In this document: piece after piece, positions 30,836-31,710 of the stretch
Layout: every line of letters begins with the position of its first letter
Position numbering within the stretch: the stretch's first letter is position 1
From: a virus
Taxonomy: Duplodnaviria; Heunggongvirae; Uroviricota; Caudoviricetes
Direction: 5' to 3' (one strand)
Virus record (IMG/VR): IMGVR_UViG_2565956708_000007
Length of the DNA: 64,000 bases
Position numbers and translations under genes: made by a program
Notes under the pieces: model-generated
What the model saw: only the letters and a program-made list of their open reading frames with translations
What the model was told of the DNA's origin: nothing
Databases searched by the model: none

Positions 30836-31710
30836 GTGTCCTTTGGCTGGTTATCCACCGTGGACGGGGAAACAAGGAGAAATGAATGGACTGATATAAC
30901 CATTTCCCCGCGTGCGCTTAGCCGCATTCACCGCAACGGAAAGAGCATTCTTGGTGGACCTGTAGATTGGGATATGAACCCGTTACAGGAGAATGCTCTT
31001 ACCTGTTACGTGCTCCGTTTCGTGGAGCTAACGGCGGGTGATCGGGCCGCACCAGGCTGGACTTATTTCAGCGTTATGCTCATGCCAGAGAATCAAACTG
31101 TGATGGTCGGTGCTGAACTCCGACACAGGGTTGTAGCAAGCCCCGCAAAGCGCGCACTACTGTAGTTGCGGCACATCAGCCTGTGCATTCACCACAATGT
31201 TGAGAACACTGGTTGTCACGCTGCAACGCAACATTTATTCGTAGATTGGGATATGACCCCGTTACGCCAGTGTTCTCAACGTTGTAGTGCCGGTTACGGT
31301 TCCGGCCAGGCCTCTTCCTCAACGGGGTGTTCTCCATACGGACTACCGTTTATTGGTCGTTCCTGCGGTTTATGTTGTGAAGCCAGATGCTTATCTTCTG
31401 GTTGCTTCAAAGAGCTGCACTTCATCACAACGGTAAGAGCACTCGATGCATTTAAGCCAAGCCCCATAATGGAGAATGCCCTTACCTGTTGTGTTGTGAT
31501 GACCGGTGCTGATCTCCGGCTTGCGGTTATTTCAGACTCTCACGGGCGTTTAATTGCCCCGCCGAACAGCTCTTTTCCGCAATAGCTGCAATGTCTTTCG
31601 CGCATCAGCCTGCGCATTCATCACAACGGTAAGGGTACTTCGTAGGGATTCGAACCCTCTGCCAAGCTCGGCGATCTCCGACGTCGCAAAATACCCTTAC
31701 CTGTTGTGCT
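30836..31710 (-). repeat. ORF-poor interval with direct and inverted repeats and a degenerate tRNA-like element
   Basis: GTAGATTGGGATATGA(A/C)CCCGTTAC at 30961 and 31240; CCCTTACCTGTTGTG family at 31002, 31483, 31694, 32134 with inverted copies at 31426 and 31626; perfect 17-bp inverted repeat 31197/31267; T-arm-like AGGGATTCGAACCCT at 31646. Confidence 0.6.

Follow-up and report, generated by a model that had tools for sequence, protein, structure and literature searches.

The window analysed in this work (the whole stretch of viral DNA, 64,000 nt long) contains, at positions 30836-31710, an interval that is rich in repeats and poor in open reading frames and that lies next to a tRNA-Thr gene. 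The question raised by this locus is what such an interval is for: the original prediction proposed duplicated tRNA 3'-flank units, decayed tRNA genes or processing-derived small RNAs, while in the reference genome of phage P1 the corresponding DNA is annotated as two protein-coding genes.

The interval within the ban operon

The features that place the interval in a transcription unit are as follows, in the order of transcription.

32515..32545 (±2 nt, approximate), minus strand: Pban promoter with C1 operator (Op72/Oban), start of the ban operon transcript; P1 annotation transferred via a 98.8-99.5% identical alignment
32380..32474, minus strand: leader segment with the P1 label 'dicF-like region', with homology to the sequence 5' of dicF in prophage Qin and not to DicF itself (77.6% identity over 98 nt to positions 963-1059 of the Qin locus L258, E = 1e-14)
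32330..32356, minus strand: intrinsic terminator, GCCCATCTTCGGGTGGGC then T7, ~175 nt downstream of Pban, filling the slot of DicF in Qin (terminator scan and sequence)
31788..31863, minus strand: tRNA-Asn (GUU); ARAGORN, Rfam tRNA 74.5 bits
31710..31785, minus strand: tRNA-Thr (UGU), CCA encoded; ARAGORN, Rfam tRNA 72.9 bits; hairpin unit U4 begins 2 nt after it
29737..30781, minus strand: 78-aa membrane ORF (30545-30781) and 275-aa SPFH/Band_7 protein (29737-30564; Pfam Band_7, 1e-30), the first protein-coding genes past the array, replacing tciABC of P1 (P1 and RCS47 annotation)

A simple sigma-70 scan missed Pban at 32515..32545. The reading of 30806-32510 on the minus strand as an extended non-coding leader of the ban operon, which C1 represses, belonging to the same transcription unit as the tRNAs, is supported, and so is the earlier statement that the interval carries no minus-strand coding. 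P1 itself possesses the array interval, annotated there as upl/plp on the opposite (plus) strand, and the alignment with P1 revealed that its copy is devoid of one module (31444-31616) and is adjoined by tciABC. The proposal that the interval sits where the tci genes belong had to be abandoned, as P1 has both; in the window, a membrane ORF and an SPFH/Band_7 gene replace tciABC in the adjoining slot. Similarly, the name 'upl', previously given to a neighbouring ORF, was misplaced: the minus-strand ORFs at 30545-30781 and 29737-30564 encode a small membrane protein and an SPFH/Band_7 protein, and upl/plp of the P1 record are the interval itself, read on the plus strand.

Five long-stem hairpin units and their spacers

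Every sequence feature listed in the original prediction was found again within a few bases of its expected place. The direct repeat comprises 25 nt at 30962-30986 and 31241-31265 (96% identical), the inverted repeat joins 31190-31212 with 31267-31289 (23 nt, 91% complementary), and the CCCTTACCTGTTGTG family is located at 30995-31010, 31478-31493, 31693-31708, and 32132-32147, with inverse copies (TTCAYCACAACGGTAAGRGYACT) at 30927-30949, 31188-31210, 31421-31443, and 31617-31639. The T-arm-like AGGGATTCGAACCCT was located at 31644-31658, within a long stem, and the motif adjoining the 3' end of tRNA-Thr starts 2 nt past the CCA end of this gene (31710-31785, minus strand). Together, these repeats form five hairpin units with long stems on the minus (tRNA) strand, with structured spacers between them; the bit scores in the list below are those of a covariance model, R1.

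32067..32147, minus strand: U5, 22 bp stem with a 43-nt core, upstream of tRNA-Asn; -47.3 kcal/mol, z = -5.6; 42.2 bits (minus) vs 31.1 (plus)
31617..31708, minus strand: U4, 23-bp stem around a tRNA-like core; z = -4.8; 54.6 bits (minus) vs 41.9 (plus)
31494..31616, minus strand: spacer U4-U3, starting GAAUGCGCAGGCUGAUGCGC and ending CCGGAGAUCAGCACCGG-UCAUCACAAC; absent from P1 and ~98% identical to a lambdoid/Stx prophage segment
31421..31493, minus strand: U3, 21-bp stem with a 29-nt core; z = -4.2; 54.9 bits (minus) vs 39.9 (plus)
31291..31420, minus strand: spacer U3-U2, with repeat families D5 and D2, common to other spacers
31188..31290, minus strand: U2, 22-bp stem of differing arm sequence (GUUGAGAACACUGG), core with the recurrent ACGGGGUCAUAUCCCAAUCUAC motif; z = -5.6; 36.5 bits; outside the training set
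31011..31187, minus strand: spacer U2-U1, with repeat families D7 and D2
30927..31010, minus strand: U1, 21-bp stem, core with ACGGGUUCAUAUCCCAAUCUAC; z = -4.9; 37.3 bits (minus) vs 28.3 (plus); outside the training set
30806..30935, minus strand: terminal module, related to the STnc100 core domain, with CACCGGGAGGCACCCGGCACCGCAGC and then a T-tract at its end; Rfam RF02076 37.8 bits, E = 7e-6

All five units fold far better than dinucleotide shuffles (z = -4.2 to -5.6, with 0-1 of 200 shuffles folding equally well), and in the 64-kb window R1 recovered exactly the five unit sites and no others, which is why the units are considered to be more than chance. The stem of a unit is built of ~20-25 near-perfect pairs, with a CACAAC/GUUGUG base and an AAGRGCAUU/AGUGCYCUU-like interior, and it encloses a variable core of 25-80 nt. 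In U4 this core combines a canonical T-arm (AGGGUUCGAAUCCCU, 31644-31658) with a D-arm-like hairpin (GCGACGUCGGAGAUCGC), and the spacer 31494..31616 has a possible fold in which GUUGUGAUGA/UCAUCACAAC close a domain. The CACAAC long-stem family, as defined in this work (at least ~19 pairs, the CACAAC/GUUGUG base, and compensatory changes), includes each of U1-U5, at 36.5-54.9 bits.

The stems contain 620 pairs when read on the minus strand vs 487 on the plus strand, the differences between arms are G·U-compatible at 60 positions on the former vs 10 on the latter (p = 8e-10), and at five out of five units the R1 score is higher on the minus strand. Among 24 diverse units, 11 of the 19 consensus pairs exhibited double compensatory changes; 97.4% of cells were paired, a percentage inflated by the selection of these units for long stems, compared with 82.3% in shuffles (none of 500 reached 97.4%) and 34-52% in slid registers. 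Stem covariation, the 60:10 G·U bias, and the covariance model support a minus-strand RNA family.

A search of viral contigs, for which a CACAAC/GTTGTGRTGAAT pre-filter was applied, yielded 124 pattern matches, 57 of them with stems of at least 16 bp, and the distribution of stem lengths was bimodal. In the negative control with arbitrary genomes, such stems were found in 2 of the 120 matches listed, neither of them family-like, so essentially all were chance matches. The units occur in P1-like, lambdoid (beside the repressor, or between Q and holin), and SSU5-like elements, and all tRNAs found nearby (18/18) are co-oriented with the unit. At permissive Rfam thresholds the units matched only generic long-hairpin models of miRNA precursors and weak tRNA-like models; the hairpin unit family is absent from Rfam, and literature searches for an earlier description of these hairpins found nothing. 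The core ACGGGNNCAUAWCCCAAUC recurs inside four unrelated arm sequences, and the combination of conserved sequence in the stem with cores recurring in different arms suggests something more than a generic dsRNA cleavage site.

Could the units act as DNA, i.e., as palindromes (MITE-like or attC-like) that mark recombination or cassette boundaries and by which tRNA/sRNA modules are shuffled between phages? The whole-module differences among relatives, with breakpoints within the repeats, the ~98% identity of one spacer between P1-like and lambdoid phages, and the shape of the units (palindromic but imperfect, having a bulged base and variable centres) would agree with this, but we consider it unlikely. 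The arm sequences differ widely between copies, unlike transposase-bound terminal repeats, no recombinase is common to the various contexts, and repeat-mediated deletion is expected of any tandem repeat, so a dedicated function is unnecessary. Moreover, the 60:10 wobble bias together with the fixed orientation to tRNAs and transcription indicates one transcribed strand, although G·T pairs in single-stranded DNA would mimic the bias.

It is also rather improbable that the units are decayed or remodelled tRNA genes, the functionless remnants of a larger phage tRNA array. In favour of such an origin are the perfect T-arm and the D-arm-like hairpin of U4, the location of the units in 'tRNA slots' (eight begin 1 nt after tRNA-Thr), and the additional tRNAs (Tyr; Ser/Sec-like) that relatives bear at equivalent places. 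However, no unit reaches any tRNA model: ARAGORN and RF00005 found only the three true tRNAs, the best tRNA score of a unit was the 14.6 bits of U4 against tRNA-Sec, and the weak matches of U4 (tRNA-Sec and mascRNA-like) spanned 14.6-14.9 bits (mascRNA 14.9). The remaining cores have no cloverleaf, the UUCAUAU 'T-loop' in U1 and U2 departs from the canonical form, and decay would not keep stems of 20-25 bp via compensatory change across three phage groups. Decayed tRNA genes are thus not supported as a general explanation, since a canonical T-arm with a D-arm-like hairpin is present only in U4, and neither are duplicated tRNA 3' flanks, most lambdoid members being free of nearby tRNA (a tRNA lies within 1.5 kb in only 10/57). 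U4 resembles YrlA/Y RNAs and mascRNA in that its D-arm-like hairpin and canonical T-arm are closed by a long stem, whereas the other four units are not tRNA-like; YrlA/Y RNA (RF02553) was rejected, its sole match (25.6 bits vs a gathering score of 69) spanning two real tRNAs.

The dicF locus of Qin and the proposed RNA precursor

In Qin, the sequences on either side of dicF show homology to the two ends of the window's array, and a hairpin at positions 874-957 of the Qin locus L258 matches R1 at full length (27.1 bits, E = 7e-6), the transcript strand scoring higher. The score of this hairpin is far lower than those of the P1-type units, and the R1 search with default filters failed to detect it. 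The Qin dicBF operon reportedly contains an RNase III processing site upstream of dicF, described by Faubladier et al. in 1990. RNase III generates the 5' end of the 190-nt DicF species (PMC10448788), and the point 190 nt upstream of the DicF 3' end falls inside the 3' arm of the hairpin 874-957. By this fragment length, which alone positions the cut to within a few nt, the family member upstream of dicF in Qin of E. coli K-12 contains the published RNase III cut. The unit family is in this way homologous to a hairpin containing a mapped RNase III site (Qin dicBF type), from which we infer by analogy that P1-type units may be cleaved as in Qin.

The two loci are alike in that a hairpin is found in a repressor-controlled early prophage operon and an sRNA would come from a polycistronic transcript. 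They differ in content, Qin having one unit and DicF, and the window having five units, two tRNAs, a terminator in DicF's slot, and no DicF (RF00039 gave no match in 29000-33000 at E up to 10, with 76.7 bits for the Qin control). The Qin unit also differs in having CAUAAC at its base, extra bulges, and a score of only 27 bits, and cleavage is shown for Qin alone.

The last module of the array also has a counterpart in Qin. The segment 30815-30935 scores below the gathering score of RF02076 (37.8 vs 47) and covers only model positions 31-147 of 206; in the Rfam alignment the helices of the STnc100 core domain and its conserved hairpins are present, with the alignment holding at the closing helix, the GGUGAAU-hairpin, and the CACCGGGAGGCACCCGG hairpin. 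Unlike canonical STnc100, the module has neither the AU-rich 5' part nor the 3' extension, it lacks its own promoter and follows a long hairpin, and the hairpin units are outside the Rfam family. The same module was identified in P7, D6, SJ46, and Ro157c2 at 38-43 bits, as well as downstream of dicF in Qin at 34.4 bits. STnc100/PasD are prophage Hfq-associated sRNAs (Rfam RF02076; bioRxiv 10.64898/2026.05.13.724894). Three other identities were rejected: the long hairpin is not a part of canonical STnc100, which in its full-length form has the AU-rich 5' part at that place; the spacers are not STnc100 paralogues, as they have similar ends but no Rfam match at E up to 0.05; and they do not correspond to PasA, PasC, or PasD of EPEC, which are late-region loci with no sequence in common with the interval.

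We consider it probable that the interval is a polycistronic precursor of tRNAs and sRNAs in which processing stems for RNase III are interspersed. Structure, strand, covariation, and the homology to the RNase III site of Qin all favour, among the explanations proposed originally, that of processing-derived small RNAs. The minus strand of 30806-32510 would yield a single precursor containing two tRNAs along with several small, structured RNAs, in which U1-U5 would serve as the RNase III processing stems; by analogy with Qin, the hairpins and sRNA modules are probably cut apart by the host RNase III. The tRNAs, cores, and spacer modules would be set free from one another through cleavage of the stems by RNase III, together with the action of RNase E and, at the tRNAs, of RNase P, and the cuts in the stems would create the 5' ends of sRNA modules that have no promoters, the last of which is related to the Hfq-associated STnc100. 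We infer that the released RNAs may function as regulators. Counted against the precursor are an intrinsic terminator between Pban and the array, an unusually open frame on the plus strand, and a CRISPRi screen in which the region was classed as nonessential for lytic growth (PMC10695390). RNA-seq papers on P1vir give no information on the interval by strand or for ncRNA.

Comparable arrangements exist. The tRNA cluster of phage T4 gives rise to the stable RNAs species 1 and 2, of which species 1 is a classical RNase III substrate. The precursor proposed here would resemble it as a source of structured non-tRNA RNAs that are transcribed together with phage tRNAs and then cleaved by RNase III; T4 is, in turn, a virulent, unrelated phage without a repeated unit family. 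In the stems of rRNA operons and the leader hairpin of lambda N, flanking sequences pair into long duplexes, and RNase III cleavage of these duplexes releases or regulates what they enclose or precede. The lambda N hairpin lies in the pL leader, as do the lambdoid units, but its sequence is not known to resemble theirs, and in the array, unlike in either case, the stems enclose short variable cores and are tandemly repeated.

An extended form of the proposal, to which we assign a low probability, is a phage 'small-RNA factory'. The hairpins would be like pri-miRNA cassettes, from which RNase III would free the cores (the tRNA-like one of U4 and the recurrent ACGGGNNCAUAWCCCAAUC) as potential stable decoys or effectors acting on tRNA-binding host factors or tRNA-targeting defences, together with spacer sRNAs whose 5' ends copy the GcvB seed (...CUUACCGUUGUGAUG). 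If true, an induced phage would impose GcvB-like repression of amino-acid uptake genes.

Remaining alternatives and significance

The units might also be cis-acting transcription elements (put-like antiterminators or insulators) allowing read-through of the untranslated leader and its terminators. They are repeatedly located just past a terminator-like hairpin in antiterminated or repressor-controlled operons (downstream of a CI-type repressor, in the Q-to-holin leader, and after the Pban terminator in P1), and the leader, ~1.7 kb of untranslated RNA, must escape Rho. Nevertheless, we regard this role as very doubtful: put RNAs, where known, consist of a pair of short stem-loops, an antiterminator would need neither five copies in one operon nor copies located after tRNAs, and in HK022 no CACAAC-type unit was found within 24-30 kb (put is unannotated in that record and was not located).

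It is highly unlikely that the plus strand of the interval encodes the proteins annotated in the P1 reference, Upl and Plp, with the repeats being incidental. In the P1 annotation, upl has 64 aa and plp, a 'putative lipoprotein', 126 aa, and promoters are predicted for them; RCS47 is annotated likewise; there are just 4 stops among the 310 codons of plus frame 0, a run of 257 codons with one stop was reached in only 4 of 1000 dinucleotide shuffles, and 'upl' reads rise in a dksA host (PMC8201110). Nonetheless, upl and plp are a single frame split by a stop, neither matches a Pfam family, and the predicted upl promoters sit in tciA, which is absent from the window. No CDS is called here by RefSeq/PGAP across hundreds of plasmids, nor by the P7 annotators, and the ORFs called by the annotators of SJ46 lie on the opposite strand and overlap the tRNAs. 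Between relatives there are a 1-nt indel, a deletion of 14 nt, and losses of modules (173 and 254 nt), no length being divisible by 3, which results in unrelated C-termini, and the 45 variable sites are spread 11/16/18 over the codon positions without an excess at the third (29 non-synonymous, 13 synonymous, and 3 stop-creating). Hence, by substitutions and indels, there is no protein-level selection on upl/plp, and the evidence says that they are not genes; the interval does align to P1 upl/plp, but among relatives neither a conserved frame nor a coding-like substitution pattern was observed.

Finally, mimicry or sponging of the host sRNA GcvB, as performed by prophage AgvB, is scarcely credible: the 3' arm and trailer (CUUACCGUUGUGAUG) do match CUUACGGUUGUGAUG of GcvB at 14/15 positions, and the 5' arms bear CACAACA, the published GcvB R1 target consensus (PMC4104026), a motif occurring five times in 1.78 kb here vs twice in the remaining 62 kb of the same strand, but the predicted GcvB duplexes with the 5' arms are unexceptional in energy (outside the top 15 of ~12,800 windows), the CACAACA seed is locked within a stem of -31 to -41 kcal/mol, Rfam AgvB gave no match, and AgvB-type RNAs are 51-60 nt long, with their own promoters, in the late region. 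The resemblance in sequence is real, but an AgvB-type sponge or mimic was rejected.

P1 is a reference phage, and for some two decades upl/plp have figured as genes both in its annotation and in functional screens. One structured-RNA unit now connects the leader of the P1 ban operon, the dicF locus of E. coli, the tRNA regions of SSU5-like phage-plasmids, and unannotated segments in approximately a fifth of complete E. coli genomes. As one member of the unit family has a published RNase III cleavage, the family offers a direct and cheap experimental handle on how temperate phages may produce tRNAs and sRNAs from long untranslated early transcripts.

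Position of the repeat-rich interval within the ban operon

The window is a P1-like phage-plasmid, and over the array region it shares 99.5-99.7% identity with vB_EcoM-813R1 and RCS47. According to the P1 reference record, the interval falls within the ban operon, which is under C1 control and runs on the window's minus strand in the order Pban/Op72, 'dicF-like region', tRNA-Asn, tRNA-Thr, repeat-rich interval, protein genes, trnI and ban. The relevant features of the window are as follows.

Features of the array region and its flanks, in the order of transcription
~32515-32545, minus strand: Pban/Op72
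32380-32474, minus strand: 'dicF-like region' (P1 label)
32330-32356, minus strand: strong intrinsic terminator between Pban and U5, ~175 nt downstream of Pban
32067-32147, minus strand: hairpin unit U5, upstream of the tRNAs
31788-31863, minus strand: tRNA-Asn
31710-31785, minus strand: tRNA-Thr
31617-31708, minus strand: hairpin unit U4, starting 2 nt past the tRNA-Thr CCA
31421-31493, minus strand: hairpin unit U3
31188-31290, minus strand: hairpin unit U2
30927-31010, minus strand: hairpin unit U1
29737-30781, minus strand: 78-aa membrane ORF and 275-aa SPFH/Band_7 protein (Pfam Band_7, 1e-30), in place of P1 tciA-tciB-tciC

The original prediction had given the names upl and plp to neighboring minus-strand ORFs, which was wrong, as in the P1 record these two plus-strand genes are the interval itself. 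The tciABC genes of P1 adjoin the interval; their replacement in the window is also found in RCS47 and Ro157c2, where it is labelled 'putative serine protease'. The tci genes, predicted to be missing at this spot, are indeed absent from the window, but the interval is no stand-in for them, since P1 also has it (its copy is without 31444-31616 only). The tRNA called Met(CAT) at 29634-29709 (minus strand) corresponds to P1 trnI, tRNA-Ile2 in the P1 record, and is ileX-like, with a presumed lysidine modification.

A family of long-stem hairpin units

All repeats listed in the original prediction were found within a few bases of their predicted positions, and the motif described there as occurring in both orientations represents the two arms of the unit stems. 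Each of U1-U5 has a core of 29-54 nt enclosed by ~21-23 stem pairs, and the folds are far more stable than those of their own shuffles (z = -4.2 to -5.6). The stem is defined not by pairing alone, as it carries conserved sequence (AAGRGCAUU / AGUGCYCUU) and a recurrent U·G pair. The idea of decayed tRNAs fits U4, in whose core a D-arm-like hairpin accompanies a canonical T-arm (31644-31658), but none of the other units. A core with the consensus ACGGGNNCAUAWCCCAAUC, a non-canonical T-arm look-alike, is common to four unrelated arm sequences, i.e., U1 (30963-30984), U2 (31242-31263), the lambdoid phage mEp460 (L007 2346-2450) and locus L016 (10102-10180); in Ro157c2, 14 nt of this core are deleted from U1. 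No Rfam family matched U1-U5, and no published description of such units was found in the literature search.

Scanning of IMG/VR with the pattern CACAACN{45,75}GTTGTGRTGAAT yielded at least 120 loci. Among the matches listed, stem lengths were bimodal: 67 had 4-11 pairs and are chance matches, while 57, from 54 loci and representing 30 distinct sequences, had 16-23 pairs. The same pattern applied to arbitrary bacterial genomes gave long stems in 2 of the 120 matches listed, neither of them family-like. Alignment of 24 diverse units with MAFFT/RNAalifold showed double compensatory changes in 11 of 19 predicted consensus pairs, and 97.4% of the cells were paired (82.3% in column shuffles), a percentage biased upward by the choice of units with long stems, which has no effect on the compensatory changes or the bimodality. 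None of 500 column shuffles equalled the alignment in any of five measures, and slid registers gave 34-52% paired cells. R1, the covariance model of the CACAAC long-stem units that was derived from this alignment, matched exactly U1-U5 in the 64-kb window, with U1 and U2 outside its training set.

In the viral loci listed, all 18 tRNAs located within 1.5 kb of a unit are on the strand of the unit, and eight units start 1 nt past tRNA-Thr. Lambdoid units often directly follow a terminator-like hairpin; those of mEp460 and L037 lie just downstream of a CI-type repressor gene and its operators, and that of L033 between the Q antiterminator and holin genes. The spacer 31494-31616 shares ~98% identity with DNA of lambdoid and Stx prophages. 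For 31494-31628, this identity is to unannotated DNA of lambdoid/Stx phages (mEp460, IME207), and in mEp460 a terminator-like hairpin of its own comes after the homologous segment, as expected of an independent sRNA gene. Of 5426 complete E. coli genomes, 1111 contain matches to the query 31400-31712, 720 of the places being chromosomal, with no annotated feature besides tRNA-Thr. Another mEp460 segment (L007 4980-5137), beside the Rha antirepressor gene, matches IsrK (67 bits) and C4 antisense RNA (44 bits, cut by the locus end).

The equivalent interval of several relatives, but not the window, contains an 87-nt 'tRNA-Ser(UGA)' (P7, L003 2638-2725; D6, L004; L008 2410-2497; L010 2408-2495; L012 2261-2347). 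Among the Rfam models, tRNA-Sec (41-47 bits, gathering score 47) and not the one for tRNAs in general gives the best score, and the anticodon is at position 33.

A link with GcvB was also considered, in view of the likeness of the 3' arm to the GcvB seed and the presence in the 5' arm of CACAACA, a GcvB target motif (PMC4104026), and was rejected, the predicted GcvB duplexes being unexceptional.

Structured strand and coding potential

Units of P7, D6, SJ46, Ro157c2, mEp460 and SSU5-like phage-plasmids of Klebsiella, Cronobacter, Salmonella and E. coli were used for strand comparison. The arms of a unit differed almost solely by changes that yield G·U pairs on the minus strand, with 60 such positions compared with 10 for the opposite strand (p = 8e-10, for units that are not fully independent), the summed stem pairs were 620 on the minus versus 487 on the plus strand, and the R1 score was higher on the minus strand at every unit. 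These three results all indicate that the minus strand is the structured one.

That the interval codes for protein on the plus strand has a low probability. In its favor, plus frame 0 at 30809-31585 is unusually open, having 257 codons with a single TAG (31163-31165), equalled in only 4 of 1000 dinucleotide shuffles; however, substitutions and indels in this frame show no coding selection. In 16 distinct orthologous segments, 45 sites vary, of which 11, 16 and 18 are at codon positions 1, 2 and 3; 29 of the changes are non-synonymous, 13 are synonymous and 3 create stops. A 1-nt indel at 30884 is present in five relatives and a 14-nt deletion in Ro157c2. The plus-strand ORFs upl and plp, which show no sign of protein-level selection, have no Pfam match, and were called neither by RefSeq/PGAP nor by the P7 annotators. 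In the SJ46 record (L005 2700-3250), two CDSs annotated as hypothetical lie on the strand of the tRNAs and overlap tRNA-Thr, tRNA-Asn and the units; they are almost certainly spurious calls.

DNA-level cassette shuffling at the repeats clearly occurs, modules of 173 and 254 nt being present or absent as wholes among relatives with breakpoints within repeats, but was rejected as an explanation of the units, because it leaves the strand bias and covariation unaccounted for.

Comparison with the dicF locus and a proposed model of leader processing

The last module of the array, 30815-30935 (minus strand), is a sub-threshold match for the STnc100 core domain, with model positions 31-147 aligned at 37.8 bits (E = 7e-6; gathering score 47), and a T-tract comes directly after it. 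A partial STnc100 match also closes the array in P7, D6, SJ46 and Ro157c2. Full-length canonical STnc100 has an AU-rich 5' part and lacks a long hairpin, so the hairpin unit is a separate element. STnc100 and PasD are placed in one family of prophage Hfq-associated sRNAs by a recent preprint (10.64898/2026.05.13.724894); the EPEC Pas loci have no sequence in common with the window.

The dicF locus of the K-12 prophage Qin (L258) is, on sequence comparison, a smaller version of the window's arrangement. The 98 nt directly 5' of dicF are 77.6% identical to ~32380-32474 of the window (E = 1e-14), so the 'dicF-like region' of P1 is the counterpart of the dicF 5' flank, not of DicF, whose slot is held in the window by the terminator 32330-32356. 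This terminator, ~175 nt past Pban, points to a short leader RNA or attenuator ahead of the tRNAs. Upstream of the 98-nt segment, a Qin hairpin (L258 874-957) is a full-length R1 match (27.1 bits, E = 7e-6; 20.9 bits on the strand opposite to the transcript), and the dicF-dicB spacer contains an STnc100-like module (34.4 bits, Rfam) with both ends 88-93% identical to the window module. In Qin, this module (L258 1143-1293) is closed by a helix of ~21 bp, AGUGAAUUUUGUGAUGUGGUG / CACUGCAUCACAAAAUUCAUU, a candidate for another RNase III substrate in K-12, unannotated in RefSeq.

The 5' end of the 190-nt DicF species, derived from the polycistronic dicBF transcript, is made by RNase III, and the 53-nt form by RNase E (PMC10448788, citing Faubladier et al. 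1990). The position 190 nt upstream of the DicF 3' end falls at GCG/CUUCC in the 3' arm of the Qin hairpin, at a height of 9-13 nt over the base of the stem, the cut being placed by fragment length to within a few nt; Fig. S1 of PMC10448788 shows this stretch.

The reading with the best support, and to us a rather probable one, is that the ban operon leader is a polycistronic precursor of tRNAs and small RNAs, in which the units serve as RNase III processing stems. Cleavage of the long-stem units by RNase III would separate the parts of the leader and provide sRNA modules that lack a promoter with their 5' ends. Alternative pairing between GUUGUGAUGA, located at the end of a unit, and UCAUCACAAC, located ahead of the next unit, would close each spacer as an STnc100-like domain after cleavage of the stems. 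The conserved stem sequence and this alternative pairing suggest more than generic dsRNA cleavage. The analysis demonstrates the structure, its strand, the membership of a family, the lack of selection for coding and the homology to the dicF locus; from these we infer that the P1-type units are cleaved and that the products may have a regulatory role. The proposal of processing-derived small RNAs was close to the mark, the feature being real, structured and non-coding. RNase III-punctuated sRNA/tRNA precursors are already known in temperate phages, and the array would be a variant of these.
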